A program made the position numbers and the translations under genes. Of a stretch of DNA of 64,000 nucleotides, positions 1,032-61,143 are shown one piece after another (position 1 is the first letter of the stretch; every line of letters begins with the position of its first letter). The stretch is from an uncultured Chloroflexia bacterium (GTDB lineage: Bacteria > Chloroflexota > Limnocylindria > Limnocylindrales > CSP1-4), in NCBI GenBank assembly GCA_963759495.1, contig CAVWZL010000014.1, positions 25,961 to 89,960 of the forward strand, given 5' to 3'. The notes beneath the pieces were generated by a model. That model ran no database searches. It saw only the letters and a list, made by a program, of their open reading frames with translations, and was not told the origin of the DNA.

Positions 1032-1083
1032 CCCTGAAGGCAGCCCTGCGCGGCCATGCCCCGAACGCGGCGGAGGACGTGCG

Positions 1084-3079: not shown

Positions 3080-3098
3080 GCCAGAGCGGGAGGGGCGG

Positions 3099-4083
3099 AT
3101 GAAGACGGCGGCACGCCCGGCGGTGAGCCGGCACCTCGGGCTGGACCTGGGTGCGACCAACCTGAAGTGGAGCGTCGTCGAGCACCGACCCGACGGATGG
3201 GCGACCGTCGCCCGGGAGCAGGTCACGACACGGATCGCCCCCGACCCTGACGCCATCCCTGCCGGCGTGGTCGCTCAGCTGGCCGACACTGCCGTCGCGG
3301 CCATTGCGGCATGGCCGGGGGTCCGGACGATCGGGATCGGCGTCCCGGGCCTGTACGACCCGGCTGCAGGCACGACCCGGTTCATCGTCAACATCCCCGG
3401 CCCCTGGGCAGGGTTCCAGGTCGCGTCGCCCGTCGCCGCTGCCACAGGCATCCCGACCGTCCTCGTCAACGACGCTCGCGCCTTCGGGCTTGCCGAGCTT
3501 CGCCTTGGAGCCGGGCGCGGCGCGTCGTCGATGATCGGCCTGACGCTCGGCACGGGTGTGGGTGGCGTCATCGCGATCGACGGGCGGGTGCACCAGGGTC
3601 ACGACGGGACGGGTGGCGAGATCGGCCATCAGACAATCGACCCCGACCGGGCCACCATGCGGCTGCGGGAACAACGGATGTCTCGAGGCGTTCACGCGCG
3701 CGGACCGGCTCGCAGAGGCGTGCGGGACGGCGACCGCGGCCGAGGCCGTCGCGGCGGCACGCGCCGGGGACCCGCAGGCGCTGGAGGGGTTCGATCGGGT
3801 GGGACATCTGCTGGGGATCGGGATCGCGAACATGATTGCCGTCATCACTCCCGATCGCGTCGTGCTGGGTGGCGGGATCGCGGCCTCGGCGGACCTCCTC
3901 CTCGGCGGGATCCGGGCCGAGCTGGAGCGGCGGGTCAGGACGACGGCGCTCGACGAGGTCGAGATCGTGACCGCCGAGCTCGGCACCTGGGCCGGAGCCA
4001 TCGGCGCGGCCATCCACGGAGCGGAGGCGGCCGCCCGTGCACCTGCCCACGGGGCGGGCGGCATCCCGGTGCTGGCCCGATGA
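3099..4083 (+). pseudogene. ROK family sugar kinase/regulator, one frame change
   Basis: GGGAGGGG RBS precedes ATG 3099. Motifs HLGLDLGATNLKW, LVNDARAFGLAE and GTGVGGVIAIDG. After ~3650 it continues in ORF 3556..4083 with the ROK zinc motif CGCGNNGCLE. Confidence 0.8.
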
Positions 4084-38493: not shown

Positions 38494-39011
38494 GTTCCAA
38501 CCTCCTGCGTCGGTGGCTTGACGGGCTGTCGAAGCGTCGGTCCCCGCGAAACCATCTGGGTGATGTCGTCCTTGGTGAATTCCGCGAGCAGATGGTGATA
38601 GCCGGCGTTACCGGCGTACAGCAGGCGGACGACGAACGCGCCTTCCTGTTCGAAGAAGAAGACGTCCTTCGGCTGCTGCTCGTCCATGTATCGACCGAGG
38701 ACGCGGAACGCCGTCTCATAGTAGCCCGAGACATGCGGCGGGAGCACTTCCTGGCGTCCGCGACGGGCCGCGGCCTCATCCATGAAGCGGGCGATGTCCT
38801 CATCGAGGAACGTGAGCGTCTCCTTGGCCTGGGTGCCCATGCCTTCCGACCATTGGCCCGCGCCGGTGGACGTGACGAGACCCTGGACGATGAAGCCGTC
38901 GGGCGCCTCCACGAGCAGGACGTCCTTCATCCCGCGCTGGTCGAGGAACGCGCCGATCGACCGGAAGACTTCCTCGAAGTCCTGGCGGGGGCTGCCCTCG
39001 TAGATCCGCAT
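38490..39011 (-). CDS. Hypothetical cytoplasmic protein (173 aa) with apparent internal duplication
   Basis: GAAGGAGG RBS precedes ATG 39011 (MRIYEGSPRQDF). Two similar modules: KDVLLVEAPDGFIVQGLV..TLTFLDEDIARFM and KDVFFFEQEGAFVVRLLY..LAEFTKDDITQMV. Confidence 0.6.
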   Translation of the reverse strand: MRIYEGSPRQDFEEVFRSIGAFLDQRGMKDVLLVEAPDGFIVQGLVTSTGAGQWSEGMGTQAKETLTFLDEDIARFMDEAAARRGRQEVLPPHVSGYYETAFRVLGRYMDEQQPKDVFFFEQEGAFVVRLLYAGNAGYHHLLAEFTKDDITQMVSRGPTLRQPVKPPTQEVGT

Positions 39012-39375
39012 CGGGCCTCCTTCGGGGCCGGTCGCCTGGCTTGGCGCCGGGGGTCGTGTCGCGCGCCCCGCGTCCGTCGCGACGACAATCGGATGGCGAG
39101 TGTACCGAGCGCCAAAACGGGCGACAAGGGACTGGGTGCGTGGCGGCACCCCGTTCCGTGGCGGCGCCGGTGCGTGGCGGCCCGCCGTGCGTGGCGACCG
39201 CGGCCGCGCCGTAGCCCAAGAAGGACTACCAACCCGACCTGCTCACCCTCAGGCGTCCCTTTGAGCCCGTTTTAGTCGCCCGGGGCATATCCGGAGCCGG
39301 TGAGCCCGAATGCAGGCCGATTTCGGTGGCACCGCGAGCCCCTCCCCGCTCCGATAGACCTGCCATGCATATCAC

Positions 39376-39570
39376 GGGGCTGGCGCCGTCCTTTATGCGC
39401 ACCAGGCTTAGCTGGCAGCGAAATGCCTCAGACAACGACCGGAAGCGCGCCTCGTATGCCCGGGAAGCATCGTTCGGTGCGCGGGGAGCCGATCCCGATC
39501 GAGTTCGGACCGCTCCCGGCACAGTGCGCCCGTGGTTAAGCCTGACACGCATATCCCGGCGCCAGTCCCG
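39376..39570 (+). ncRNA. Candidate structured RNA (unknown family): 26-bp interrupted closing rod enclosing three hairpins
   Basis: P1 39376-87/39558-69 (12 bp, 1 G-U). P2 39394-99/39548-53. P3 39403-10/39537-44. Hairpins at 39414-27, 39445-82 and 39484-517. The two wobble pairs are G-U only on the + strand. Lies in a 573-bp lower-GC intergenic region. Confidence 0.35.
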
Positions 39571-39584
39571 GGGACGAGCTCCCG

Positions 39585-40567
39585 CTAGAGCCCCGTCCCG
39601 CCCCCCGCGTGCAGGTGCGCCGACAGCTCGCCCGCGACGCGCGCGTCATTGACGATCAGCGCGGTGTTCGCACGCACCGAGGCGCCGTCGGTGATCGTGG
39701 CGATTCGCGCGAGCAGCCAGGGCGTGAGAGCAGGGCCACGGATCGCGCGCCGCCTCGGCGTCGTCGATCGCCTGCTCGACGGCGTCCCGCGCATCCTCCT
39801 CGGTCAGCGCGTCCTCGAACGGGACCGGCGCGCACACGAGGACACCGCTCCCCAGACCGAGCCCGAGATGGATCGCGGCGACGCGCGCAGCGGACGCGAC
39901 GTCGTCAACGCTGAAGGGCGCCGGGATGCCCGCTCGAGCGGGCGTAGAAGCCCGGCAGGTCCGGCTGGCCCACGGCAACGACCGGCACGCCCCGCGTCTC
40001 GAGGTATTCGAGGGTGATGGCACGTCGAGGATCGCCTTCGGGCCGGCGCAGACGACGGCCATCGGCGTCCGGGCGAGCTCCTGCGAGGTCCGAGGAGATG
40101 TCAAGCGTCGGCACGTCAGCTGACCCCGGCGAGCCGAGCGCCGCGGTGGACGCCGCCGATCCCGCCGGTCGCGAAGACCCGGATCCCGGCCGCGTGCGCA
40201 GCGATCATCGTGGCCGAGACCGTCGTCGCCGCCCAGCCGCCTTCGTGGAGGGCCATTGCGAGGCTCGGTCGGGCCGCCTTATCGGACCGACCCGACCGGC
40301 GCAGTCGCGAACGCCTCGAGCGCGGCCTCGTCCAGACCGACGAGCAGCCGCCCATCGCGGACCGCCACGGTGGCGGGCACCGCGCCGGACTCCCGCACCG
40401 CCGCCTCGGACGCGCGCGCAACCTCGAGGTTCTGCGGGTACGGCAGCCCGTGGCTGATCAGCGTGGATTCGAGCGCGACGACGGGTCGCCCGTCGCGCAA
40501 CGCCATCGGCGACCTCGGGCGCAACCACCAGGCGCGCCGAGATCGTGGAGGCGACGCCGGGCGGCAT
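39585..40567 (-). pseudogene. psuG: Pseudouridine-5'-phosphate glycosidase, >=4 frame changes
   Basis: Fragments across all frames: [21 protein letters not shown] / [25 protein letters not shown] / [25 protein letters not shown] / MAVVCAGPKAILDV / LEYLETRGVPVVAVG / [31 protein letters not shown] stop at 39585. Confidence 0.8.
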
Positions 40568-41540
40568 CAGCCAGGCGGCAGCTCGGGGCGGCGCGTGCCG
40601 AGCTGGCGGGCCGCGGCGCGATGACCGGCCAGCGCGGCGCGGCGCATCGAGGCAGGCAGGGCCTGGCCCGTGGAGCGGGCACCGAACCAGCCGACGAGGA
40701 AGCCGGCATCGAAGGCGTCGCCCGGCGCCCGTCGTGTCCGTGGCGGTCGGCCGTTCCGTGGCCACTTCGAACCGGAGCGCGGCTCGGTCGCCTTGCCGGG
40801 CCATCACGGTCGCCCCCTCGCGAGCCGCGCTTCACGACGACCACCGGCGCGAAGTCGAGCAGGCCCTCGACGCCGGCCCGGCCCAGGAGCGCCTCCGCCT
40901 CTGCCGCCGTCGCGAAAAAGCAGGTCGGGCGCCGCCTCGCGGACGAGCTCGCGGGCGACCCGCCGGCCATGACCGAGGAGCGGCCCGATCGACGCGAGAT
41001 CGACGGGTGACGCCGGCGCCGCCCGCCCGCGCGAGCTCGACCGCCCGACCGGCCGCGCACGCCCGAGCGGCTCGCCGAGCAGCGAGTACACCGGCAGGTG
41101 GAGCGCGTCGACGCGTCGAAGCCACGCCGGGTTGACGTCGTCCGGCCGCAGCTGAGTCGGCCGCGCCGCGATCGGCGACGAACGAGCGCTCGCCGTTCGG
41201 CGCGACGATGACCCCGATGCGGCCCGTCCGCGCTCCCGCGACCCGCGACACACGGGCCACGACCCGATCCGATTCCACCGCCTCGACGAGCGCGCGACCC
41301 GCCGCGTCCCGGCCCACGGCGCGCGATCAGCGTGACCTGTGCCCCGAGCCGGCCAAGCCAGCGGGCCGTGTTGGCGGCCGACCCACCCTGGACGAGCGCG
41401 ACGGACCCCGGCACATCCGTCCCGAGCTGGAGCGGCCCCTGCGATGCCAGGACCACATCGAGCATGAGATCGCCGAGAACGACGATGCGCGCGGCCGGCT
41501 GCGGGCGGGCGGTTCGGCGGCGTGGCCGGAGCGCTGGCAT
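40567..41540 (-). pseudogene. psuK: PfkB-family carbohydrate kinase (pseudouridine kinase-like), >=4 frame changes
   Basis: Fragments: RIVVLGDLMLDVV..GGSAANTARWLGRLGA / RTGRIGVIVAPNGERSF / LHLPVYSLLGEP / LLFATAAEAEALLG / DTTGAGDAFDAGF inferred across frames. The stop overlaps the psuG start at 40567. Confidence 0.7.
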
Positions 41541-41698
41541 GGCGGCGAGCATAGCGGCGTGCGGCTGCAGCCGTTTCGACACGTTTTGGCCCCGGTGACA
41601 AGGGCGGCGCGTGAGCGGCGGCAGTAGGATGGCCGGGTCCCGAACGCCAGGCAGCACGCCACAGCAGGGCCGGCCGACCCCAGCACCGGAGCCACCGC

Positions 41699-43853
41699 AT
41701 GACGATCGCCACGGACCTCGACCGGCTCGCCATCGACACGATCCGGACGCTCTCGATCGACGGGGTGCAGAAGGCGAACTCGGGTCACCCGGGCGCACCG
41801 ATGGGGGCCGCGCCGATGGCCTACGTGGTGTGGACCCGCTACCTCCGCCACGCTCCGACTCACCCCGCCTGGCCGAACCGTGACCGGTTCGTGCTCTCGG
41901 CCGGGCACGCGAGCATGCTCCTGTACTCGCTCCTCCACCTCACCGGGTACGACCTCGCCCTCGAGGACCTCCAGGCGTTCCGCCAGTGGGGATCGCGGAC
42001 GCCGGGCCACCCGGAGTACGGGCTCACGCCCGGGGTCGAGGCCACCACCGGCCCGCTGGGCCAGGGCTTCGCGAACGCGGATCGGGATGGCGATCGCCGA
42101 GCGACGGCTTGCCTCGGAGTTCAATCGCCCCGACCACCTCCTGATCGATCACCGGGTCTACGGGATCGTCTCCGACGGCGACCTGCAGGAGGGCTCGCGT
42201 CCGAGGCCGCCTAGCTGGCCGGACACCTGCGGCTCGGCAAGGTGATCGTACCTGTACGACGACAACAAGATCCAGCTCGACGGCCCGACCTCGATGGCCT
42301 GGTCCGAGGACGTCCCGGCACGCTTCGACGCCTACGGCTGGCACACGCAGCGCGTCGAGAACGGCAACGACATCGCGGCGATCGAAGCGGCGCTCGATGC
42401 CGCGCAGGAGGACGAGCGGCCGAGCCTCATCGCGGTCCGCACGCACATCGGCTACGGCAGCCCCAACAGCAGGACACGCAGAAGGCGCACGGCTAGCCCG
42501 CTCGGCGACGACGAGGTTCGGCTCACCAAGGAGGCCTACGGCTGGGATCCCGATCGCCAGTTCTACGTGCCGGACGAGGTGCGCGAGCACTTCGAGCGGT
42601 TCGCCGCACAGGGGCAGAGCGCTCATCGACGACTGGGAGCGACGCGTCGCGAGCTACCGGGAGGACTACGCCGAGCTGGCCGACGAGCTCGATCGACGGA
42701 TCGCGGGCCGGCTGCCGGAGGGCTGGGACGCCGGGCTCAAGACCTACGCCGTCGGGGAAGAGATCGCGACGCGCAACGCGAGCCAGGAGGCGATCCAGGC
42801 GCTCGCGGAGCCGGTGCCGGAGCTGTTCGGCGGTTCCGCGGACCTTTCCGAGTCAAACCTGACGGACGTCAAGGGTGGCGGCGACCTCAATGCCGACGAG
42901 GCCGGGCCGGAACATCTGATTCGGTGTCCGCGAGCACGGCATGGGCGGGATCGTCAACGGCATCGCCTACCACGGCGGCTTCATCCCGTACGCGCGCCAC
43001 GTTCCTCAACTTCAGCGACTACATGCGGGGGTCGGTGCGCCTCGCCGCGCTCGCGGACCTGCACGTGGTCTACGTCTGGACCCACGATTCGGTGGGCTTG
43101 GGCGAGGACGGTCCGACGCACCAGCCGGTCGAGCACTACGCGGCGCTGCGCGCCATGCCGAACCTGTGGTTCGTGCGACCCGGCGACGCGAACGAGACCG
43201 CGGCCGCGTGGGCGCTGGCGGCGTCCCGTCGTGGCGGCCCCGTGGCGCTGTCGCTGACCCGCCAGAAGCTGCCGACGCTCGAGGGCACCGCCGAGAAGGC
43301 ACGGGACGGGCGTCGCCCGGGGCGGCTACGTCCTGCGGCGATGCGGCCGGTGGCACGCGCCCGAGGTGATCCTCATCGGCACCGGCTCGGAGCTCCAGCT
43401 CGCCGTCGGCGCCGCGGACGCGCTCGAGGCGGACGGCATCCCGGCCCGCGTCGTCTCGCTGCCCGTGCTGGGAGGCCTTCGAGGCCCAGGACCAGGCGTA
43501 CCGGGACGAAGTCCTGCCGCCCGACGTTCGTCGGCGCGTCGCGATCGAGGCCGGTGTGTCGCTCGGCTGGGAGCGCTACGCGGGCGACGAAGGCGCGATC
43601 GTCGGGCATCGACCACTTCGGCGCGTCCGCGCCTGCCGGGACGATCTTCGAGAAGTTCGGCTTCACAGCCGACCGCGTGGCGGACGTCGCCGGCGGGTCG
43701 TTCGCAACGGGCTGCGCGGCGCGTCCCGACGCTCGATCCGGGCCACCAGCCGGCCGGCCTCGGTCTGGGGTCGGCGCGAAGGGCGGCGCCACCCGTCGAT
43801 CGACGGGGCGATCGGCGTGGACCGGACCGCGCTCGGACCCGGGGCACTCCTGA
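41699..43853 (+). pseudogene. tkt: Transketolase, >=12 frame changes plus an in-frame TAG
   Basis: Motifs [96 protein letters not shown]. The pieces alternate among all three frames. TAG at 42212 sits where ..EAASLAGH.. is expected. 3' end uncertain. Confidence 0.9.
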
Positions 43854-44300
43854 TGCGGGTCGGGTTCGCGGCGGATCACGCGGAGCGGCCCTGAAGGCCG
43901 AGCTGCTCCGGCGCGTCGCGGCGCACGGCCCGACGACAGCTCGTCGACCTCGGCGGCGACGGCTCCGACCCGAACGACGACTACCCGGACTTCGCGCAGC
44001 GGCTCGCGCTCGCGTCGCGACGGCGAGGTCGAGCGGGGCATCCTCATCTGCGGCTCCGGCGTGGGGGCGAGCATCGCGGCGAACAAGGTCGGGCGTCCGC
44101 GCCGCCGTTGCCACGACACGTACTCGGCCCACCAGGGCGTGGAGCACGACGACATGAACGTCCTGACGCTCGGCTCGCGGGTCATCGGCCCGAGCCGGCG
44201 CTCGAGTGCGCGCTGGCCTTCCTGGCGCGACGTTCAGCGGCGAATCCGCCACCGCGCCGCCTCGACAAGGTCCTCGCGATCGAGCGAGCGATGCTCGGGG
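43853..44300 (+). pseudogene. rpiB: Ribose-5-phosphate isomerase B, several frame changes
   Basis: ATG 43853: [11 protein letters not shown]; [17 protein letters not shown]; [27 protein letters not shown]. Fragments lie in three frames. Stop not determinable. Confidence 0.7.
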
Positions 44301-44307
44301 GCAGCGC

Positions 44308-46149
44308 ATGGCGCGCGCGGATCTGCGATCCGACTCCCCGGAGCGGATCGCAGGCGATCGACGAGCTGTCGCGCGCGACCACGGAGCGCTGGGCGGAGCG
44401 GCTGTTCGACCGCGACACGACGCTCTGGACGGACGACCCGGACGTGGCGCGAACATCGCGACCGGCTCGGCTGGCTCGACGCGCCGGCGCACTTCGCCCA
44501 GAACACCGCCGCGCTCGAAGGCTTCGGCGACGGCGTCGTCGAGGCCGGCTTCGACACACGCGGTCGTCGATGGGCATGGGCGGCTCCAGCCTCGCGCCGG
44601 ACGTCCTCCACCGCACATTCGGCACGACCGAGGGCTACCTCGGGCTGCGCATCCTCGACTCGACTGACCCGACGTCCGTGGCGGCAGCCGTCGACGACCT
44701 CGACCCGCTCGAGACGCTCTGGATCGTCGCCAGCAAGTCGGGCACGACCACGGAGCCGAATGGCGTTCCTGGCGGACGCGTGGGCCCGGGTCGAGGCGCG
44801 CGCTCGAGGAGCGCCATGACGGCCCGACCAGCAGCCGGGCGAGTTCTTCGTGGCGATCACCGACCCCGGCAAGAGCATCGATGCGATCCCCCACCACGAC
44901 GACCTGCGCGAGCATCTTCCTGAACCCGCCCGACATCGGCGGGCGGTACTCGGCGCTGACCTACGTGGGACTCGTGCCGGCGTCGCTCATCGGGCTCGAC
45001 CTCGACGCGCTGCTCGCGCTGCCACGGCGATGCTCGGCGCCTGCCGGGAGCCGGACCCGGCGCGCAACCCCGGCGTCTCGCTCGGTCTGGCAATGGGGGG
45101 CCTTGCGCGCGCGGGCCGCGACAAGCTGACGTTCCTCGCCGATGCCGAGATCGCGAGCTTCGGCGCATGGGCCGAGCAGCTGATCGCCGAGAGCACGGGC
45201 AAGCGTGGCGTCGGCATCGTCCCGGTCGACCTGGAGCCGCTCGGCACGCCCGCGTCCTACGGCACGGACCGCGCGTTCGTGCGCTCGGCGCTGGACGGCA
45301 GGCGCGGCCGGTCCGCCGGACGCCCTCGCCGATGGGCTGGAGGCGGCGGGTCAGCCGGTGATCCGGATCGAGCTCTGTACGATCCGATCGACCTCGGCGG
45401 CGAGATGGTGCGCTGGGAGGTCGCGACGGCGATCGCGGGGGCGGTCCTCGGGATCGACCCGTTCGACCAGCCGAACGTCGAGGAGGCCAAGGAGCTCACG
45501 CGACGCGTGCTCGATGCAAGGGACCCGCTGCCGAGGAGCGGCTCGAGCACCCGACCGACTGGGCAGGCGCGAACGTCGTCGACGCGCCCGAGCGGCCGCC
45601 GAGCGTCCCGATCCTCGCCGAGAGCGACGGGCTCGTGCTCATCGGGATGCCGCCATGCGGCTGACCGCCGACGGCAGCGGAATCGTCGGTGAGCTCGCGC
45701 GGCACCTGGCCCGGCGGCGACCGAACGCTACGTCGCGATCCAGGCGTTCATCGCACCCGACGCCGGAACGCGACGAGGCGATCGCCCGGATCCGCGGCGC
45801 TGCTCGCGACCGACGGGACGCGCGACGACGGCCGGCTACGGTCCGCGCTTCCTCCACTCGACCGGCCAGCTGCACAAGGGCGGCCCGCCGACCGGCGTGT
45901 TCCTCCAGCTGACCTCGGACCATCCGGACGATCGCCCGATCCGGGCTGGCCGTACACGTTCGGCACGGCTGATCGACGCCCAGGCCCGCGGCGACCGCGA
46001 GGCGCCTCGGGCGCACGATCGGCCCGTCCTCCAGGTCCACCTCGGCCCGACCTCGACGGCGGGCTGATCGCCCTCGAGCGCGCCCTCGCGGCTGCGCTGG
46101 AGGCACGCACGCAACCGCGGCACGCCCGCGGCCCCGCCCAGGAGGATGA
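44308..46149 (+). pseudogene. pgi: Glucose-6-phosphate isomerase, >=8 frame changes
   Basis: Motifs [78 protein letters not shown]. The fragments alternate frames. The only nearby stop (TGA 46147) is in another frame. Confidence 0.75.
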
Positions 46150-46151
46150 CC

Positions 46152-47059
46152 ATGCACATCGGCTTCATCGGGCTCGGGCGGATGGGGGCGAACATGGTCC
46201 GCCGGCTCGTCCGGGACGGGCACGAGATCGTGGCCTACAACCGGACCGTCGAGAAGACGAAGGAGCTCGAGGGCGAGGGCGCCGACCGGCCGTCGTACGC
46301 GATCGAGGAGCTCGTCGGCGAAGCTCGAGAAGCCGCGCGCCGTCTGGATCATGGTCCCGGCGGGCGACGCCACCGAGGCCCAGATCGCCGAGCTGCTCGA
46401 GCACCTCGAGCCCGGCGACACGATCATCGACGGCGGCAACACGAACTTCCACGACGACGTCGCGCCGCCACGCCGAGCTCACGGAGAACGGCATCCAGTA
46501 CATCGATGCCGGGACGTCCGGCGGGATCTGGGGCCTCGCAGAACGGCTACTGCCTGATGGTCGGCGGGGACCGGGAGGCCGTGGAGCCGCTGAGTCCCGA
46601 TCTTCCGATCGCTCGCCCCGGAGGACGGCTACCTCCACGCCGGCGGCCCGGGCGCCGGGCACTACGTGAAGATGGTCCACAACGGCATCGAGTACGGCCT
46701 GATGCAGGCCTACGCCGAGGGCTTCGAGATCATGCACGCGAGCGAGTACCCGCTCGATCTCGGGGCCATCTCCGAGCTGTGGATCCACGGCTCGGTCGTC
46801 CGGTCGTGGCTGCTGGAGCTTGCGGCGCGCGCGTTCAAGGCCAATGGCCAGGATCTCGAGCACCTCAAGGGCTGGGTCGCCGACTCGGGCGAGGGCCGCT
46901 GGACGGTCCAGGAGGCGATCGACCGCGACGTCCCCGCGCCGGTCATCACGCTCGTCGCTCCAGACGCGGTTCCGGTCGCGCCAGGACGACTCGTACGGCG
47001 CGAAGGTCCTCGCCGCGCTGCGCAACGAGTTCGGCGGTCACGCGGTCAAGACGGGATAG
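46152..47059 (+). pseudogene. gnd: 6-phosphogluconate dehydrogenase (decarboxylating, short Gnd-like form), >=5 frame changes
   Basis: AGGAGG lies 7 nt upstream of ATG 46152. Motifs [74 protein letters not shown], ending ..[13 protein letters not shown]. Confidence 0.8.
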
Positions 47060-47073
47060 GCGAGCGAACGACA

Positions 47074-48769
47074 TGGCCGATACGGCGACGCGGCGACGAT
47101 CGCGGCCCGAGCAGCTCCGCCGAGCAAGCCGCCACGACCCGTCGCCGAAGGGCAAGCCGAAGACGCGCCCGGACCGATGCGCGACGCTGCGCATGGCCGC
47201 GCGAGACACGCCGGCAAGGCCGCCGACCCGCGCAGCACGAGAACTCGCTGCGCGAGGGGCTCCGGCTCGAACGCGTGCCCGATCCGCACGTCATGGTCCT
47301 GTTCGGAGCGACCGGCGACCTGTCCCACCGCAAGGTGTTCCCGGCGCTCGCCCAGCTGTGGCGGACGAACCTGCTGCCCGCCGATTGGGCGCTCGTCGCG
47401 CGTCGGGCGCCGGCCGTACGACGACGAGTCGTTCCGCGCGGAGATTCGCGCATCGCTCGAGAAGTACTGCCGGTCATCCAGCTCGACGAGGCGGCGTGGA
47501 CGGCCTTCCTGCCGAGCGGGTCGCGTACCAGCGTCGCGACTTCGCTGAGCGCCGATGGTTCGACAGGCTGGCTGACGCGCCTGGACATGCTCGACGAGGA
47601 GCGACGGGACGCGCGGCAACCTGCTCTTCTACCTCGCGACGCAGCCGTCGCAGTTCGCCGAGATCGTCGGCGCAGCTCGGGCGCGTGCGGGCTCGACCAC
47701 GAGCAGGCACGACGGCGGCTGGCGCCGGATCATCATCGAGAAGCCGTTCGGGCACGACTTCGACTCGGCGCAAGCAGCTCAACCGCGAGGTGCACAAGGT
47801 CTTCCGCGAGTCGCAGGTCTATCGCATCGACCACTACCTGGGCAAGGAGACGGTCCGGAACCTCCTGGTCTTCCGGTTCGGCAACGGCATCTTCGAGCCG
47901 ATCTGGAATCGGCGCTACGTCGATCACGTCCAGATCACCGTGGCCGAGTCGATCGGCGTCGAGGACCGCGGCGCGTTCTACGAGGAGACCGGTGCGTCCG
48001 CGACGTGCTCCAGAACCACCTGCTCCAGCTGCTGAGCCTCGTCGCGATGGAGCCGCCGGCGACGTTCGAGGCCGACGCCCTGCGCGACGAGAAGGTCAAG
48101 GTGCTGCGCGCGATCGCGCCGCTCGATCCGCAGGAGGCGGCGCGACGTCGTCCGCGGCCAGTACGGACCGGGCTGGGTCGCGCGGCGCAGCGTCCCGGGC
48201 TACCGCGAGGAGAAGGAGGTCGACCCGCAGTCCGAGACCGAGACCTTCGTCGCCGCGCAGTTCGACGATCGACGACTGGCGCTGGTCCGGCGTGCCGTTC
48301 TACCTCCGGACCGGCAAGCGGCTCGCCAAAGCGCGCGACGGAGATCGCGATCCAGTTCCGCGAGGTGCCCGCACCGGCTCTTCGCGCGACTCGGCGACCG
48401 ATCCCGAGCCGAACCTGCTGGCGATCCGCATCCAGCCCGACGAGGGCATCATGCTGCGCTTCGGCTCGAAGGTCCCGGGCCTCGGGCTCGACATCCGCCC
48501 GGTGACGATGGACTTCACCTACGGCGCGGCGTTCGCGTCGACACGCCGGACGCGTACGAGACGCTGATGCTCGACGCGATGCTGGGCGACCAGTCGCTGT
48601 TCACGCGGGCGGACGAGGTCGAGGAGGCCTGGGCGATCGTCGACCCGATCATCGAGGCGTGGCTGGACTGCCCGGCGCCGGAGTTCCCGAACTACGCGGC
48701 CGGGACCTGGGGGCCGGCGCAGCCGACGAGCTGATCGAGCGCGACGGCCGGCGCTGGCGGCGGCTGTGA
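47074..48769 (+). pseudogene. zwf: Glucose-6-phosphate 1-dehydrogenase, >=8 frame changes; start uncertain
   Basis: Motifs [85 protein letters not shown], ending ..DGRRWRRL-TGA (48767-69). Confidence 0.85.
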
Positions 48770-50082
48770 CGACCTCGTCGAGGGCGGCGGACGGGCCGGT
48801 CGCGACGCCGATCGGCGCCGTCGAGCCGGGCGCGCTCGCGCTCGGCAAGCCGATGCTGCGCTGGTCGTCGCACGCGCGCACGATCGACGGCGTCGCGACC
48901 GAGCTGGCCCGGATCTGGTCGCAGTCGATCTAGCTGACCAGGCCGGCGAGGAGGCGAGCGGGCGTCGCGTCGCGGCACGGTCGAGCGTGATGAACCTCGT
49001 CGTCGTCGCCGCGCCGCGCGAGAGTCGGCGAGCGCTGCGCCGCGACCATCGAGGCACTCACCGTGCGCCATCCGTCACGGACGCTGATCGTGACCTCGGC
49101 CGACCCGGACGGGCCGGCCTGGATCGACGCGCAGGTCCAGGCGCACTGCGTGCTGCCGCGCGAGGACGTCGCCGAGACCTGCTCCGAGATGATCTAGCTG
49201 ACCGGCGGCGGCGAGGCGGGCCAGCACCTGGCCGCGCTCGTGGCGCCGCTCGTGGTCCATGACCTGCCGGTGACGGTGTGGTGGCCGGGCGAGCCGCAGT
49301 TCGGGTCGCCGCCGTCCGTCGAGCTCCTGAGCGGCGGACCGGATCCTCGTCGACGGCTCGGGCTGGACCGGCGACGGGCTCGCCCGGCTGCGCGGCTGGC
49401 CGCGCTGCCCGAGACGGCGCGGTCGAGGTCGCCGACTTCGCGCTCGTCCGGCAGTCGCGCTGGCGGGAGGCGATCGCCTCGACCTTCGACGGCCCCGAGT
49501 TCCTGCCCTACCTGCGCTCGCTCCGCCGTATCGCCGTCGCCTACGCGACGCACGACGAAATCGGGCGAGGCCGGCGCCACGAACGTCGTCAGGCCGGTCT
49601 ACCACGTGGCATGGCTGGCTTCGCGGCTCGGGCTGCGCGTCGTGCGACCGCTCGCCCCCGTGACGCTGTCAGCGGCAGCCGCTGCCCGCCGGCCGAAGCC
49701 TGGCGCCCGGCCGGCGAGCCGATCCGTCGTGGGTCGCGGTCTGTCGGCAACGCTGGCTGACGGTCGCGGTGAGGTCAGCGTCGTCGTGCGGCCGGTCACC
49801 TCGCAGATGCCTGCCGGGACGACGCTCCGGGTGGAGCTCCTCGCCGAGCGTCGTGGATCGGAGCTGCGCGCCGACGTGACCGCCGAGCAGGACACGGTCC
49901 GGGTGCGGGTCTGGCAGGACGGCGTCGAGGCGCTCGACCGGCATTTCACCGCTCCCCGGCGGACGGATGTCGACCTGCTGGCGCAGGCGATCGAGGCGAG
50001 CGGGCACGACCGCGTCGCCGAGGACGCCCTGCGGGTCGCCGCGTCACTCGTCGGGCCGGGCGAGACGGGCGCGGGCCGATGA
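48766..50082 (+). pseudogene. opcA: Glucose-6-phosphate dehydrogenase assembly protein OpcA, about 5 frame changes and in-frame TAG codons
   Basis: GTG 48766 overlaps the zwf stop. Motifs NLVVVAAPRE, LTVRHPSRTLIV, HDLPVTVWWPGEP, FALVRQSRWREAIASTFD. TAG at 48931 and 49195. The last shift is near ~49567 and the 3' third is intact. Confidence 0.8.
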
Positions 50083-50867
50083 CGGATCGAGACGCCGGGC
50101 CCGGCACCGAGCCACGGATCGTCCGTGTGGCCGACCCGGACGCCGCGGGCTCGGCCGCGGCCGAGGTCATCGCCGATGCCCTGGCGCGCGCAGCCGGCGC
50201 ACGTGGCCGCGCGGACTGGGTCACGACGGGCGGCTCGACCCCTGTCCCGATCTACCGGGCGCTCAGCGGGTCCCACCTGCGCGACACGATGCCCTGGGAC
50301 CGCACCCACGTCTGGTGGGGCGACGAGCGATTCGTGCCGCGCGAGCACGAGCTGTCCAACGTCAAGCCGCTCGACGACGCGCTCCTGCGTGACGGCGCCG
50401 CGCCGCTTCCCCGGAAGAACATCCATCCGTTCCCGGTGGCGCGCACGCTGGCGGCCGGGCAGGACGAGGCATGGTGCGCCGCGGAGCTGGCGGGCGAGCT
50501 CCAGGCATCGGGCGTGGCCACGGCCGAGGGCTGGCCGGTCTTCGATCTCGTGCTGCTGGGCATGGGACCGGACGGTCACATCCTGTCGGTCTTCCCCGGG
50601 TCGGCCACGTTCGCATCCGGGTCGTGGGCGCTTGCCGTCCCCGCGCCGCAGCACGTGGAGCCGCACGTTCCACGCGTGACGCTCAACCCCGCGATCGTGA
50701 CGGTGGCGCGCGAGGTCCTCGTCGTGGCGCACGGCGCGGGAAAGGCCGACATCGTGCGGCGCGTGCTGACCGGCCCGCTCGACACCGACCAGCTTCCGGC
50801 ACAGCTCGCGCGCAGACCGGGCGCGACCTGGATCCTGGACGAGGCGGCTGCCGCCGGGCTGCCCTGA
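50079..50867 (+). CDS. pgl: 6-phosphogluconolactonase
   Basis: ATG 50079 overlaps the opcA stop (ATGA). Intact 262 aa. Motifs WVTTGGSTPVPIY, VWWGDERFVP, LLGMGPDGHILSVFPG. Confidence 0.85.
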   Translation: MTDRDAGPGTEPRIVRVADPDAAGSAAAEVIADALARAAGARGRADWVTTGGSTPVPIYRALSGSHLRDTMPWDRTHVWWGDERFVPREHELSNVKPLDDALLRDGAAPLPRKNIHPFPVARTLAAGQDEAWCAAELAGELQASGVATAEGWPVFDLVLLGMGPDGHILSVFPGSATFASGSWALAVPAPQHVEPHVPRVTLNPAIVTVAREVLVVAHGAGKADIVRRVLTGPLDTDQLPAQLARRPGATWILDEAAAAGLP

Positions 50868-50919
50868 CCAGGTTGGGCGCGGCAGGGCGTGCATCGGGCC
50901 GCCGGTCCGTAGGCGCCCC

Positions 50920-51753
50920 GTGATGTCGTGGTCGACGCCCACGCGGATCATCCCCGCGCCGGACGGCGTGCCGATCGCAGTCTTCACGTCCGGAACCGGG
51001 CCGTCCCTCGTGCTCGTCCATGGGGCGACCTCGGACCACACGACGTTTCGGGTCGTCCGGCCCCTGCTCGAGGAGCGCTTCACGATCCACGCCATCGACC
51101 GCCGCGGACGCGGCGCCTCGGGGGATGCCGGGACCTACGACATCGAGCGGGAGTTCGAGGACGTGGCGGCGGTCGCAGCCACGATCGCCGGGGAGACGGG
51201 CGAGCCCGTTGACGTGGTCGGTCACTCGTACGGCGGCCGATGCGCGCTGGGCGCGGCGCTGCGGACCGAGACGATCCGCCGGGTTGTCTCCTACGAGGGC
51301 GCTCCCGCGCCGCCCGAGTCGCCCTACCAGACAGGCGCCCTGCGGGAGGTGCTGCGGAGCTACATCAGCCGCGGCGACAACGCCGGCGCGCTCACGCTGT
51401 TCATGACGCTGGTCGTCGGCATGAGCCCGGCCGACCTCGAGGCCTTTCGCGCCAACCCCGTCTGGCCCGCCCGTGTCGCGGCCGCGCCGACGATCCTGCG
51501 CGAGCTCGATGCCGAGACCGCGCCGGCGGCGTCCCTTGAGGCGCTCGGTGAGGTGCGCCAGCCCGTCCTGCAACTCCTCGGCGGGGCGAGCATCCGGCCC
51601 TTCCAGGTTGCAACAGCAGCGCTCGACAGGCGGCTGGCCGACGGGCGGGTGATCGTGATCGAGGAGGCACGGCACGCGGCCCACCACACGCATCCCGACG
51701 CATTCGTCGCCGCGCTCGAGACGTTCCTGCTCGCCGATCGCCTGATCGCCTGA
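50920..51753 (+). CDS. Alpha/beta hydrolase
   Basis: Intact 277 aa. Motifs LVLVHGATSDH and VVGHSYGG (GxSxG), with His near the C-terminus (EEARHAAHHTHPD). Confidence 0.8.
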   Translation: MMSWSTPTRIIPAPDGVPIAVFTSGTGPSLVLVHGATSDHTTFRVVRPLLEERFTIHAIDRRGRGASGDAGTYDIEREFEDVAAVAATIAGETGEPVDVVGHSYGGRCALGAALRTETIRRVVSYEGAPAPPESPYQTGALREVLRSYISRGDNAGALTLFMTLVVGMSPADLEAFRANPVWPARVAAAPTILRELDAETAPAASLEALGEVRQPVLQLLGGASIRPFQVATAALDRRLADGRVIVIEEARHAAHHTHPDAFVAALETFLLADRLIA

Positions 51754-55362: not shown

Positions 55363-56085
55363 CGCGATCGCGAGCTCGCCCGCCTGCCGGGCTGCGATGA
55401 ACAGGCCGTTGCCGCCCATGTCGAGCAGTCCGATCACGAGGACGGCCGGGACGAGAGCCCGCGGCATCCGCCACGGCTGCCGCACCAGGACGATGGCCGC
55501 GACGAGCAGCACGGCCTGGGTACCGCGCAGGATCGACAGCGGTCCGAAGACGTGCCCGTCGCTGACCTGACCGATCAGCACGTTGAACAGCCCGATCCCG
55601 GTGCCCGCCACGAGGGCGAACCGGAGCCCGCCGCTCCGACCATGCTCATCGCCTGCCTGCGAGACGAGCACGACGGCAACGATCGCCAGCCCGATCCCGA
55701 TCAGCACCTCGTTCCGTGGCAGGCCCTCGAGCGCGATGCCGGCGACCACGGGGATGATCACGGCGAGCACCCCCGTCACCGGCGCCACGATGCTCATCCG
55801 CCCCGCGGCAAGACCCGCGTAGAGGGCGCTGATCCCGACGACGCCGGCGACACCTGCCGCCACCGACCACGCCACGTCCGCCGGTCCCGGAGGCGCCTCT
55901 CCGCGAACCACGAACAGCCCGAGCGCCACGACCATGCCCGCGATCTGGGTCAGGAGCACCACGCCGAGGAGGGCGGCACGGCGCGTGGCCAGACCACCCC
56001 CGAAGTCGGACGCTCCCCAGCACAGTGCCGAGAGCAGGCCGAGGAGGACGACCGGGGCGCCGAGCGTCGCGAGGACGTCGTTCAG
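55222..56085 (-). CDS. EamA/DMT family transporter; N-terminal ~45 codons lack a canonical start
   Basis: ORF 55222..55962 plus in-frame upstream LNDVLATLGAPVVLLGLLSALCWGASDFGGGLATRR (first TM plus the conserved WG). Only CTG 56085 is available, overlapping the upstream TGA. Confidence 0.7.
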   Translation of the reverse strand: MNDVLATLGAPVVLLGLLSALCWGASDFGGGLATRRAALLGVVLLTQIAGMVVALGLFVVRGEAPPGPADVAWSVAAGVAGVVGISALYAGLAAGRMSIVAPVTGVLAVIIPVVAGIALEGLPRNEVLIGIGLAIVAVVLVSQAGDEHGRSGGLRFALVAGTGIGLFNVLIGQVSDGHVFGPLSILRGTQAVLLVAAIVLVRQPWRMPRALVPAVLVIGLLDMGGNGLFIAARQAGELAIASTLASLYPVGTVVLAAIFLRERIGAAHAVGIVLAGIAVILIASGAS

Positions 56086-58299
56086 GCGGGTGCGCCCTCG
56101 ATCGAGACGGCGATGGGCAGAGCCTCGATCGGGTGGTCATCGGCCGCGGTCGGCCCGGGCAGCTCGACGACGGCGTCGGCGGCTGCGTCGTAGCGATCGG
56201 ATGTGGTCAGGTAGATGACCTGGAAGTCGGCGGCAACCGTGCGCAGCAGCTCGAGCGCGCGCGCGGCCCGCACGTCGTCGAGGGTGACGAACGGGTCGTC
56301 GAAGATGAGCGGCGGCCGGCGATCGCCGGTCACGAGGCGGACGAGGCCGAGACGCGCCGCGAGATAGATGAGGTCGACCGTGCCCTGGCTCAGCGTCGCT
56401 GACCGGCACCCAGTCGCCCTTCTCGGGCGCGAACACCTCGATGTCCAGGGTCTTGTCGTCGACCCTGACCCGCCGATAGCGGCCGTCGGTGACGCGGCGA
56501 TGTCGCGGACCATCCGCTTCTCGAGGTAGCGCGTGGCCGTCTTCATCGTCGCCTGCTCGGCTGCCTCGATGGCCGCCAGGGTCGCCGCATATACGCGCTG
56601 TCGTCGTTGCAGAGCGCGCAAGCTCCTCGCGCCAGCGCTCGGCCCGCTCGGCGTGGCCGGCGACCTGCTCGGCATCGACTGCGTTCGCCTCGACGCGGGC
56701 GCGAGCGTTCGCCTCGTCGTCGCGGGCGCGCTCGAGGGCGGTCTCCTGGTCGCGCACCTCGACCTCGAGCCGCTCCCGGGCGCGCGGCTCCTTGGCGATC
56801 GGCCCGAGTGCTTCGAGCGCGTGCGTCTTCTGCTCGATCTCGAGCGCGGCCTGGTCGCGGAGTCGGGCAGTGTGTCGGGCGGCTGGCGCCCGACGAGGCC
56901 CTCGAGCTGTGCCTCGAGGTGGCTGATCCGCGCCGGCGTGCTCCTCCTCCCGCGCAAGGAGGTCCTCGGCGGCCGCGAGATCCTCGAGGGCCACTGTCTG
57001 GAGCGCTGGACGCGATGTCCGCCTCACGCCTCGCGGAGCTCCTGCTCAGCTCCGAACGACCGCGGAGCCGGCGATCGATATCCGGTCTCGCGGAGCTCGC
57101 GCCGCAGCCGGTCGCCGCGGCGCAGCCAGAAGCGCCACGAACGCGAGCGAACAAGCCCGATCCCGACGAGGACCGCGCCGACGAGCTGGGCCAGGGACCG
57201 GGATCTCGAGCGTGAGGACGGTCCGCGCAAGGAACGCGCCAACTGCCACGACGACGCCCGAGGATCGACGAGCGACGATGGCCCAGCGCGACAGCGGGCG
57301 CCACGTGGGCTCCGGCGGGAGATCGAAGTTGACCTCGACCTCGCCGGCAAGCGCCGCCCGCAGCTCGCGGATCCGCGCGTCAAGGCTGCGCAGGCGGTCG
57401 ACGGCCTGGCGCAGGACGCGGCAGCGGGTTCGCCGACGGATGCGGCCCGGCGAGCGTCCGCGAGCTGGGCGTCGATCTCGGCGGCCTCGCGGTAGCGCTC
57501 GAACCGCTCCTGGGCGCCGGTCCGCTCGGCGATGAGCCGCTCGGCCTGGCGCGCCTTGTCGAGCATCGAGCGGCGCTCGGCAAGGGCCGTGTCGGCATCG
57601 GCGCCGCCGCTCCGCGCCCCGGCGAGCGTGTCGCGGTCGCGTTCGAGCTCGCAAGAGCGCAAGCTCGCCCTGCTCGAGCGCGGCAGCTGACTGCGCCAGG
57701 CGTCCGCTCGGCGACCTTGAGCGTGCCCGGGTTCTTCTCGCCCTTCGTGCCCAGGTCGTGCAGCGCGCGCTCGAGCTTGCGCTTCGCCCGGCTCGTGCCC
57801 CGGTCGGCGCCGCTGATGGAGGCCTGGAGCCGGTCACGCAACGCCGACTCGTCGCGAGCGAGGTCGGCCAGCTCGTGATGGCGGACCGAGGCGGTCGAAC
57901 GGAAGAACGCCTCGGTCGGGATGCCCGTGAGCTCGGCGAGCACCTGGTCGCTGAGCGTCGGGTCGTGATGGCCTGGCCGTCGTAGTCGAGCTCGACGGTG
58001 CCCTTCGAGCCGCGGAAGACCTTCTCGAGGGTCCCGGTCTTGACGACCTCGTCGTCGTCCTGCTCGAACTCGAGGCTGATGATCGTGCGCGCGTCGGCCG
58101 GCGCGTCCCACGGCCGCAGGGCGTTGAGATCCGTCGCGCCACTGGTCACCCGCCGGGTGATCGCCAGCTCGATCGCCCGCTGGATGGTCGACTTGCCGGC
58201 CTCGTTCGGGCCGCGGACGACGGTCAGCCCGGGGGCGAGGTCGATGTCGAGGTTGCGATGGCGCCGGAAGTCCCGCACCTGCAGGCGGCGGATCCTCAC
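56082..58299 (-). pseudogene. SbcC/YhaN-like AAA ATPase with coiled coil and a central hydrophobic hairpin, >=8 frame changes
   Basis: GTG 58299 overlaps the upstream stop. Walker A VVRGPNEAGKSTIQ and long E/R/A/L-rich stretches. Two hydrophobic segments near 57150-57330. C-terminus LSQGTVDLIYLAARLGL..PLIFDDPFVTLDD. Pieces lie in ORFs 57046.., 57380.., 57024.., 56137.., 56082... Confidence 0.75.
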
Positions 58300-59469
58300 A
58301 GCGTGACCTCGTGACCCGCGAGCAGCAGCCGGCCGAGCCGCAGCACGTCGCGGGCTCGGCCGCCGCGTCCGTCTCGCCCTCCGCTTCGAGCCGGGCGATG
58401 CGATGCCTCGAGGTCGCGGATGAATGCGCCGGTGATCGTGTCCGGCGACGGGAGGACGCCTTCCGTCAGTGCCGGAAGTCGAAGTGTCGCGAACGCGGAC
58501 CTTGAGGAACGACGGGCTCGAGCGCGCGCTCGATCTCGTCGAGGTGGAGGTCGAGCTCGTCGGTCCGCACGCCGCTCGATCCGGACGTCGAGCACGAGGT
58601 CGGGGTCGGCCCGCTTGGCCAGCCGTCGATGAGCGCCGGCTGGCTGCCGATCGCCGCCGCATCGATCCGCAGCTGCTCGAATCGGGTCCGCCCGACCTGG
58701 CGCTCCTCGACCGTGACCGTCTTCGTGCCGTCGGCCGCGTCGAGCGTGACGAGGAGCACGTTGCCGGCCCGATCCTGGTCGAGGGCGACGGGCTCGGGCG
58801 CGCCGGCGTACGCGTACGTGACGCCGCCGGCGCGTGCCCTGCTGCGTGGAGTGCCAGTGACCCAGCGCGAGGTAGTCGAGGCCGCTCGCGCGATCTGGTC
58901 GGTCGTGATGACGACGTCGTCGCCGTCGGTCTTGCCCGGGATCGCGAGGGCGCCGTGGACCATCCCGATCTGCCAGGTGCGCCTCGGGGATCGAGGGCGG
59001 CGTCGAGGCCGTCGAGCGGGCTCGTCGGTGCGCGCTTGGTCGCGAAGACGCGCCGTGAACACGACGACGTCGACGGCTTGAGATGGACCAACGGCCGGTC
59101 AGGCGTCAGGACCGTGACCAGGTCGTCGTCGATCGGGGCTGCCGGCCAGCGCTGCGAGGTCGTACGCGCGGTAAGGGACGAGCGGTCGTAGACGTCGTGC
59201 GTGCCCGGGAATGATGCACGGTGCGGATCCGCGGCGACGCGAGCCGCTGGAGCTCCGCCGCGACGCGCTCGACGGAGCGGCGCGGCTGGACGTTGGAGTC
59301 GAACAGGTCGCCGGCGATCAGGAAGAGGTCGACCTGCTCCTGCGAGCGCCAGGTCGACCGTTGCGCGGAAGGCCGCGAACTGGCGCTCGCGCTGTGCCGC
59401 GGCCTGCTCGCCGAGGTCGGCGTGGCGCGCGCCGAGATGCACGTCGGCGGTGTGGAGGATACGGAGCAC
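58296..59469 (-). pseudogene. SbcD/YhaO-like metallophosphoesterase (DNA repair exonuclease family), >=5 frame changes
   Basis: GTG 59469: VLRILHTADVHLGARH; VDLFLIAGDLFD; IPGTHDV; LDYLALGHWHS (in a third frame); C-terminus ..RLLLAGHEVTL (ORF 58296..58595). Confidence 0.75.
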
Positions 59470-59894
59470 CGGTCGGCGGCTGTGCCCTCCCTGCGTCGAT
59501 CCGGACGGCGGCGCGAGTGGCGAGCCGTCACGGCCGGCCGGCCGCCCCGACGGCCCGCCGATGATGGCGCGAGCGAGGCGCCCCCATGACTCCCCGCTCG
59601 CCACCCCGAATCTCGGGTCGCATTGTGACAGGTACGGTGTCACGGCTGCCGAGGCCCGGCTGGAGCCGCGTGGCGCCTGGGTGGTGCATCCGGGCCACGC
59701 AACGCCTTGTTTGCGAACCCGTTGTATGTTCGCGCCCTGACATACCGGTGCGCCCCGTCAGGGACTCCGCCGATCGGCACCTGGGCAGCGCGGCCCCGGC
59801 ATTCCCCGCCAGCACCTCGCGAGACCCGTCTGCAGATCCGGCCGTCCCCGGAGCAGGATGCCGGTCGGCCTTCGCGCTCCGGGAGGAGCAGTTC

Positions 59895-60234
59895 GTGACC
59901 TTCGTCGATCGACCGCTGACCTGTGTCGATTGCGGAGTCGAGTTCATCCACTCGGCTGCTGATCAGGAGTTCTATTCGCAGCAGGGGTTCTCGAGCGAGC
60001 CCAAGCGCTGTACCAGCTGCCGGGCCAGCCGCCGTGCCGCCCGCGACAACGGATACGACGTCCAGGACATCGGAGGGCCGCGCGGCTACGAGCGCGGCGA
60101 CGACCGGCCGAACCGCGAGTACTTCGCCGTGATGCTGCTCGTCGTGCGGCAATCAGGCCCAGGTCCCGTTCAAGCCGCGCATGGACCGCCCGGTCTACTG
60201 CTCGGACTGCTTCCGGCAGGTCCGCCCGGACTGA
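59895..60234 (+). pseudogene. Double zinc-ribbon (CxxC..CxxC x2) small protein, one frame change
   Basis: GGGAGGAG RBS precedes GTG 59895. LTCVDCGVEFIHSAADQEFYSQQGFSSEPKRCTSC, then after ~60133 (+1) CSSCGNQAQVPFKPRMDRPVYCSDCFRQVRPD-TGA. Confidence 0.7.
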
Positions 60235-60708
60235 CCGGCCGCAGGATCCGCAACCGGAGCGCCTCGGGGCCCCAGACCCGGGGTGCTTTCGATTCGGGGC
60301 CCGGGGCGCGTGGCGTCATGCCGCCCAGTCCTCGAACCTACCGGCGAAGGCCTCGTCGGGCCTCGCCAGCGCGGATCGTGACCGCGCGTGAGGGCTACCG
60401 GGCCTCGATTCGCGCTGGATGGCCCTTACGAGCTCGTTTCGAGGATTCGCTGGCCTCGCCCGGACCGCGCCTGGGGCGCGATGAGCGCGGACTGCCCCTG
60501 CCAGGGCGGCCATATTCCAGGAAGGAGTATCCGCGCGGATAGATTGCCGCTGGGCCCCCTCCAGGGGCTGCGGTAGCGCAAGGAGGTCTATCCCGGGGCC
60601 TCGAAGGGTGATTCCTGTGCCTCCTCGCTCCTCGAGAGGGCGCGGAAGCGTTCGATAGACCCGGGGCGCATACGGCGAGAGCGCCCGGCATGGTTGGACG
60701 CCTCGAGC

Positions 60709-61143
60709 TCACGGAGGGCACGGTCCCTCGAATCCAGGTTCGGGCGCGGGACCAAGGACGGGCGGGCCGACCCACGCCGCCAACCGACCACATGGCATGT
60801 CAAGGAACCCCGCGGCGCCTCCTCGCAGAGAGACCTGACCGTCCGGGCCGGTTGTCCGCGTGATCGCAGTCGATGCCACTTCCACGCCCAGCAGGATCCG
60901 ACCGGTTCCGGAGCGCAGATCAACGAGCCAGGGCAGCGGTCCGAGGGCGTCCGCGCCAATCGCCACCTGGCCACCGGGATCGACCGTGCCGAAGATGCGC
61001 CCGTTGACCCAGAGCGACACGCCGATCGTCGTGCCGTTCGAAACCTCGAGCGGCAAAGCTGTAGGGGCGGGGCCGGGACCGCATGCCGCCAAGGCGATGA
61101 GGGTGGCAATCACGATGCCGCACGGCGCGCGCCGGCCGCTCAC
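60709..61143 (-). CDS. Putative lipoprotein of unknown function
   Basis: GTG 61143 overlaps the upstream stop (GTGA). VSGRRAPCGIVIATLIALAACGPG (lipobox-like) followed by a beta-rich mature part. Confidence 0.5.
   Translation of the reverse strand: MSGRRAPCGIVIATLIALAACGPGPAPTALPLEVSNGTTIGVSLWVNGRIFGTVDPGGQVAIGADALGPLPWLVDLRSGTGRILLGVEVASTAITRTTGPDGQVSLRGGAAGFLDMPCGRLAAWVGPPVLGPAPEPGFEGPCPP

Follow-up and report, generated by a model that had tools for sequence, protein, structure and literature searches.

Why should a stretch of ~10 kb lose the reading frame of every gene it carries? Within the window analyzed here (the whole stretch of DNA, 64,000 nt), such a block holds an oxidative pentose-phosphate operon together with tkt, rpiB and genes of pseudouridine salvage, and the question is whether these genes have decayed or were corrupted in the assembly. 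Frameshifts were called by frameshift-aware protein-to-DNA alignment against the intact orthologues of a congener (G004). This method replaced raw ORF lists and tblastn with stop-to-stop ORFs, which were dropped because spurious long ORFs clutter a genome of 70% GC. The locus is composed as follows.

38508..39020, minus strand: flanking gene of 181 aa, intact, the left control; a single alignment at 83.6% identity with 0 frameshifts
39075..49602, no strand given: the error-rich block (~10.3 kb), given here by its outermost possible borders
39585..40559, minus strand: psuG, pseudouridine-5'-phosphate glycosidase (Pfam Indigoidine_A); 7 frameshifts
40570..41538, minus strand: PfkB-family kinase, called psuK in the preliminary description; 7 frameshifts
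41701..43809, plus strand: tkt, transketolase; 13 frameshifts and 2 in-frame stops (TAG ending 42214, TGA ending 42919)
43853..44340, plus strand: rpiB (LacAB_rpiB); at least 4 frame changes, from a three-frame reading
44347..46105, plus strand: pgi, phosphoglucose isomerase; 15 frameshifts and 1 apparent in-frame stop
46151..47053, plus strand: gnd, short 6-phosphogluconate dehydrogenase; 5 frameshifts
47060..48766, plus strand: zwf, glucose-6-phosphate dehydrogenase; 20 frameshifts
48799..50073, plus strand: opcA; 6 frameshifts, the last at 49560, and one TAG ending 49197; final 513 nt clean
50108..50861, plus strand: pgl, 6-phosphogluconolactonase, intact, the right control; 0 frameshifts

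Between 39.6 and 49.56 kb, psuG, the PfkB kinase, tkt, pgi, gnd, zwf and opcA together provide 9.16 kb of coding sequence, in which the alignments revealed 73 frameshifts (8 per kb) and 4 in-frame stops. The frame changes in rpiB lie outside these 73 and bring the block total to ~77. Joining the rpiB pieces afforded a Pfam match with E=4e-24; five congeners lack rpiB at this locus, and none of them aligns to 43748-44381. The flanks (the 181-aa gene, the opcA tail at 49561-50073, pgl, citrate synthase and a membrane protein) yielded 0 frameshifts in 3.94 kb, an outcome with a probability of 2e-14 at the block rate. These counts agree with the preliminary description, which had reported that every gene in the block was fragmented, with ~14 shifts in tkt and at least 50 overall, and that the genes directly outside had none. 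An Rfam scan of 38-51 kb matched no family.

Independent short-read contigs were available from a soil metagenome run, X1, which contains this organism at ~3x depth and covers 8 of the ~77 frameshift sites. Comparison of these contigs with the assembly gave zero differences through 39074, first differences at 39476, last differences at 49602 and clean sequence beyond, placing the left border somewhere in 39075-39476 and the right border somewhere in 49561-49602. Contigs over 38924-39074, in the region of the left control gene, and over 50667-50921, in the region of pgl, are identical to the assembly. Consistent with these borders, a GC3 phase plot flips phase every 150-300 nt between ~39.6 and 49.6 kb and is steady on both sides, and the block contains 5.52 phase switches per kb versus 0.64-1.39 per kb in the matching stretch of the five congeners. 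The sharp-edged ~10-kb block described earlier is thus confirmed; its right edge of ~49567 falls within our interval, but the left edge lies slightly to the left of the psuG stop at 39585, where it had been drawn.

Sharp borders might also arise if the contig were chimeric, with DNA of another organism inserted or mis-joined, and substitution divergence from X1 is likewise confined to the block. Nevertheless, the five congeners share the gene order over both borders, DNA identity to them is 76-84% both inside and outside, and GC content is continuous through the block and its flanks. A foreign segment would also leave the frameshifts unexplained, and we regard this origin as extremely improbable.

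The X1 contigs bear directly on the frameshifts themselves. In the flanks, 6 substitutions and 0 gaps were found over 2164 nt (99.7% match), versus 51 substitutions (2.8%) and 13 gaps over 1813 nt in the block, a significant excess of gaps (Fisher p=4e-5). At all eight covered sites X1 restores the frame, with the indel in the restoring direction each time (psuG 39749, 39928 and 40016; PfkB kinase 41322; tkt 42993; pgi 45015 and 45299; gnd 46320), so that none of the block frameshifts at these sites is present in X1, whose strain is ~2.8% off in the block by substitutions. Recoding or programmed frameshifting was set aside, as the ~77 sites share no common motif and reads restore the frame. 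Of 15 coding substitutions between X1 and the block, 9 fall on third codon positions (p=0.03), and at some conserved sites the X1 base is unlike that of all congeners. Within the block, the strain sampled by X1 differs from that of the assembly, and a sceptic could read it as a sister strain with intact genes.

This pattern raises the possibility of an artefact with another cause than simple low depth, in which consensus or polishing mixed two haplotypes ~2% apart, or a hybrid assembly was gap-filled with unpolished long reads. The third-position enrichment of the 2.8% divergence, set against the 99.7% match of the flanks, argues for such a cause and shows real strain variation limited to the block. 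We consider it possible but rather unlikely, in view of the indel spectrum and of the contig ends discussed below.

Further read data added context. Runs X2 and X3 represent a relative 6-8% divergent and serve as side evidence only. A read test of a second block (contig C2, 294.5-304.25 kb) placed the 8 longest X1 pieces all in the flanks, which are less clean there, and so lends weak support; a further read comparison over 47.86-49.8 kb recovered mostly conserved zwf fragments of other organisms and no new sites. Among the runs listed, no nanopore run contained the flank sequence.

Genuine pseudogene clusters are known from reductive genome evolution, as in Mycobacterium leprae and recent host-restricted bacteria, where many adjoining genes carry frameshifts and stops. 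Real decay of this kind relaxes selection, leaves far more substitutions than indels, produces larger deletions and recurs, lesion for lesion, in independent reads. The block resembles these clusters in its run of neighboring genes with frameshifts and stops, but it shows none of the four marks of real decay.

Selection was evaluated as private changes at sites invariant in the five congeners, by codon position. The test for relaxed selection proposed in the preliminary description proved negative: private changes at positions 1 and 2 amount to 5.3% in the block versus 5.0% in the flank, which argues against a pseudogene island. By position (1 / 2 / 3), the values are 6.3% / 4.4% / 15.5% in the block and 5.3% / 4.8% / 23.5% in the flank, and the order pos2 < pos1 << pos3 is preserved in the block. 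GC3 within frame pieces remains 0.9-1.0, with codon-position structure fully kept. Frame-corrected block proteins are 69-84% identical to the G004 orthologues, versus 70-86% for flanking genes, and cover their Pfam profiles end to end, with the exception of a partial PGI match. Corrected tkt spans Transketolase_N 2-334/334, Transket_pyr and the C-terminal domain, and corrected zwf spans G6PD_N 1-183/183 and G6PD_C 1-296/296. Judged from the restored reading frames, the block genes appear to be under normal purifying selection, without relaxation.

The mutation spectrum is equally atypical of decay. Against ~77-80 frame-breaking indels in the block stands an excess of only ~14 substitutions at codon positions 1 and 2, and no large deletions were found there. 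Single nucleotides account for 70 of 100 private indel events (47 insertions, 23 deletions), and 36 of the 47 inserted bases are unlike both neighbors, most lying outside homopolymers. Indels thus appear to equal or exceed the excess substitutions in number, whereas natural mutation shows the opposite balance. Insertions outnumber deletions and fall mainly outside homopolymers, unlike the classic signature of nanopore consensus, a point that weighs against the artefact reading. Haplotype mixing alone offers no obvious source of such random single-base insertions.

A genuine pseudogene island would require the oxidative pentose-phosphate operon, tkt, rpiB and pseudouridine salvage to have decayed through ~77 indels. 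The indels do stand in the deposited sequence, and the X1 strain, which differs within the block, might be the intact sister strain. We nonetheless find such an island highly improbable, given the unremarkable frequency of nonsynonymous-type changes, the inverted spectrum without large deletions, the restoration of frame by reads at every covered site, the location of the only tkt, zwf and pgi copies of the assembly inside the block, and the ~47 other like-looking blocks described below. The indels could alternatively be real products of localized indel-biased hypermutation or very recent block-wise inactivation, affecting ~48 segments of 5-15 kb in a minor strain, for instance where long tracts were resynthesized by error-prone repair, and would be so young that substitutions have not yet built up; to this we attach scarcely any credence. 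Overall, the gene shattering is almost certainly neither a real feature nor real gene decay.

Genome-wide recurrence of the pattern was quantified with a codon-phase scan using a GC3-phase HMM, with a switch penalty of -7, since -12 missed pieces of ~100 nt. The scan identified 48 blocks totaling 527 kb, or 16.8% of the assembly, with a median of 7.9 kb and 5.4 phase switches per kb inside versus 1.76 outside; the block under study was recovered as C14:65000-75750. Of the genes in other blocks, sufC and sufS together lie in 16 pieces and a cyanophycin-synthetase-like gene in 11. Blocks also extend over 15 of 38 contig ends (p=7e-4). The pattern therefore recurs whatever the genes encode and follows the structure of the assembly, namely contig ends. 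This placement of the blocks is easier to reconcile with fading read support than with gap-fills joining short-read contigs. An explanation by haplotigs or duplicates was rejected: the sole assembly copies of tkt, zwf, pgi and psuG lie in the block, and a search for second copies gave only a 35%-identical transketolase-like paralogue (contig C1) and a 32%-identical gnd-like match (contig C3).

Taken together, we favor, with a probability of roughly 0.9, an assembly artefact in which a single noisy long read, or very few of them, underlies the consensus. This supports the unpolished long-read or low-coverage patch proposed in the preliminary description, on the strength of frame restoration at 8 of 8 sites, unrelaxed selection and ~48 like blocks enriched at contig ends. 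We infer that low long-read depth caused the block. Some 10.3 kb of consensus would have been built on so few reads, possibly from a minor co-occurring strain, and would for that reason retain read-level errors, roughly 0.8% single-base indels and a few substitutions. The true psuG, PfkB kinase, tkt, rpiB, pgi, gnd, zwf and opcA of the organism would be intact. About one sixth of the genome would consist of such patches, each about the length of one read and bounded by steps up or down in read support.

Indel-driven ORF fragmentation is documented for low-coverage long-read metagenome assemblies (Waschulin et al. 2021, PMC8692599; Cusco et al. 2021, PMC8103633; Kastor, PMC12007338), and for soil long-read assemblies a strong correlation has been reported between coverage and the fraction of ORFs that have the correct size (Waschulin et al. 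2021, PMC8692599). As in those assemblies, conserved genes here are split by single-base indels into many frame pieces and yield normal proteins once corrected. In contrast, the errors here are packed into ~48 read-sized, sharp-edged blocks in an otherwise nearly clean assembly, and most insertions are not homopolymer-associated.

The main value of these results is as a quality warning: ~17% of the bin is consensus near raw-read quality, and in such patches gene calls, counts of pseudogenes, estimates of completeness and reconstructions of metabolism cannot be relied on. One such error would be to conclude that the organism has lost transketolase, pseudouridine salvage or the oxidative pentose-phosphate pathway. 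Equal caution applies to an ncRNA candidate at 39.28-39.60 kb and to recurrent stop-creating contexts at 36-49 kb, which lie in or adjoin blocks. In high-GC genomes, the GC3-phase scan provides a simple, reference-free flag for these patches. The assembly is a 19-contig soil metagenome bin with an estimated completeness of only 69.9%, in line with an artefact, and few-contig sister bins are probably affected likewise; among the congeners, few-contig bins reach 66-85% completeness and a 280-contig bin 90%.

Dense frameshifting between about 39.6 and 49.6 kb of the window is almost certainly an artefact and no biological feature, with low read depth the presumed cause. On a GC3 codon-phase plot, coding phase flips every 150-300 nt across this block and is steady on either side. 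Lesions were counted with a frameshift-aware dynamic programme that compared the window with intact orthologues (locus L010) from G004, at once the most complete and the most fragmented of five congeners (280 contigs).

Gene order and frameshifts, left to right
181-aa gene: none
psuG, minus strand: 7
PfkB kinase, minus strand: 7
tkt: 13
rpiB, in the window only: at least 4 further frame changes
pgi: 15
gnd: 5
zwf: 20
opcA: 6, the last at 49560; none in its last 513 nt
pgl: none
minus-strand gene, a putative hydrolase
citrate synthase: none
membrane protein: none

The seven block genes without rpiB carry 73 frameshifts and 4 in-frame stops in 9.16 kb of coding sequence, versus zero frameshifts in the 3.94 kb of flanking coding sequence (P = 2e-14 at the block's rate). 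These counts bear out the preliminary description of a densely frame-shifted block with clean flanks; its shift numbers were, if anything, too low. Phase switches number 5.52 per kb in the block versus 0.64-1.39 in the orthologous stretch of the congeners, all five of which share synteny across the region and both borders, with DNA identity of 74-84% inside the block and outside alike. Among these six genomes only the window has rpiB between tkt and pgi. The surrounding segment (43748-44381, ~630 nt) occurs in this genome only, the congeners having ~220 nt there, and looks like a real difference in gene content rather than an error.

The proteins beneath the lesions appear in good order. Pfam searches of frame-corrected translations bear out the gene names, most profiles being covered end to end (e.g. 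Transketolase_N 2-334/334 and G6PD_C 1-296/296) and PGI matching partially (101-308 of 486). Identity to G004 falls in the same range for frame-corrected block proteins (69-84%) and flanking genes (70-86%). The sole tkt, zwf, pgi and psuG copies found in a search of the assembly sit in the block. Relaxed selection, which genuine decay would entail and for which the preliminary description proposed a test, was evaluated by counting changes private to the window at sites where the five congeners all agree. Such changes amount to 6.3%, 4.4% and 15.5% at the first, second and third codon positions in the block versus 5.3%, 4.8% and 23.5% in the flank, or 5.3% versus 5.0% for positions 1 and 2 pooled, giving no sign of decay. 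Natural decay to ~77 indels would flatten the codon-position pattern and yield substitutions far in excess of indels, and is therefore disfavoured by ~14 excess substitutions against ~77 frame-breaking indels.

Independent reads came from X1, a shallow soil metagenome kept as short contigs (~3x for this organism), which holds 26% of sampled words from the flank at 50-56 kb versus just 5% from 41-48 kb. X1 pieces show 6 substitutions and 0 gaps over 2164 nt of flank, versus 51 substitutions and 13 gaps over 1813 nt of block (Fisher p = 4e-5 for the gap excess). At all eight frameshift sites called from protein homology that X1 reaches (39749, 39928, 40016, 41322, 42993, 45015, 45299 and 46320), it differs by one base in the frame-restoring direction, as does X3, a run with a more distant relative, at 40281, 43465 and 45643. 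The borders are fixed by X1 differences that begin at 39476 and end at 49602, with one contig that stops at 39074 and another that begins at 50667 both matching the window exactly. A 350-nt intergenic insertion at the left edge (39258-39607), which none of the five congeners has, occurs once in this genome and gave no match in an Rfam search. X1 includes it with 7 differing positions (39476-39534), and the precise bases that this assembly gives for it cannot be relied on.

Relative to the five congeners, the block's private one-base indels comprise 47 insertions, 36 of which differ from both adjacent bases, and 23 deletions, plus a few two-base events. Three in-frame stops replace codons that are sense in all five congeners; single-base changes underlie the TAG ending at 42214 and the TGA at 42919, the other being the TAG at 49197, and a fourth stop adjoins a 7-nt alignment gap. 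Such a random, indel-dominated spectrum is typical of single-molecule reads, and since it is not homopolymer-centred we leave the sequencing platform unnamed. The earlier reading as an unpolished or low-coverage patch is supported in all but actual read depth; the phenomenon is well documented in soil long-read assemblies (PMC8692599).

Substitutions between X1 and the block at 39740-43056 fall at third codon positions in 9 of 15 cases (p = 0.03), and at some conserved sites X1, not the window, deviates from the congeners. Real variation between strains therefore accounts for much of the 2.8% substitution difference. The third-position excess indicates that two strains ~2% apart co-occur, which shows only within the block. 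On the simplest reading, well-supported parts of the contig would represent the majority strain, the same as X1's, and the block would come from a minor strain sampled by one or two reads, retaining that strain's alleles together with read errors. As a close alternative to this majority-strain contig with a minor-strain block, two haplotypes may have confused the consensus, which would likewise be an artefact.

The pattern recurs genome-wide in this bin of 3.13 Mb (19 contigs, 70% GC, completeness estimated at merely 69.9%). Scanning all contigs with a six-state GC3-phase HMM followed by two-state segmentation returned 48 dense blocks (5.4 switches per kb versus 1.76 elsewhere) that sum to 527 kb and make up 16.8% of the assembly, with a median length of 7.9 kb (interquartile range 5.4-13.9 kb); the present one is called at C14:65000-75750 (contig CAVWZL010000014.1, of which the window is 25961-89960), window 39040-49790. 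Contig ends lie inside blocks in 15 of 38 cases (p = 7e-4). In other blocks, sufC and sufS lie in 16 pieces and a gene resembling cyanophycin synthetase in 11, and joining pieces restores full-length Pfam matches (e.g. Aminotran_5 1-371/371). Window 1-3290 belongs to another such block (C14:15000-29250), and 56000-61000 has elevated switching (3-6 per kb) yet no called block; genes in both may carry artefactual frameshifts too. Few-contig congeners are 66-85% complete versus 90% for G004, which fits marker genes broken by frameshifts in long-read bins. Some genes are split in the few-contig sister bins G001-G003 and G005 (loci L011-L013 and L009), as with tkt at L011 (279-aa and 560-aa ORFs), and similar consensus errors probably affect other parts of these bins.
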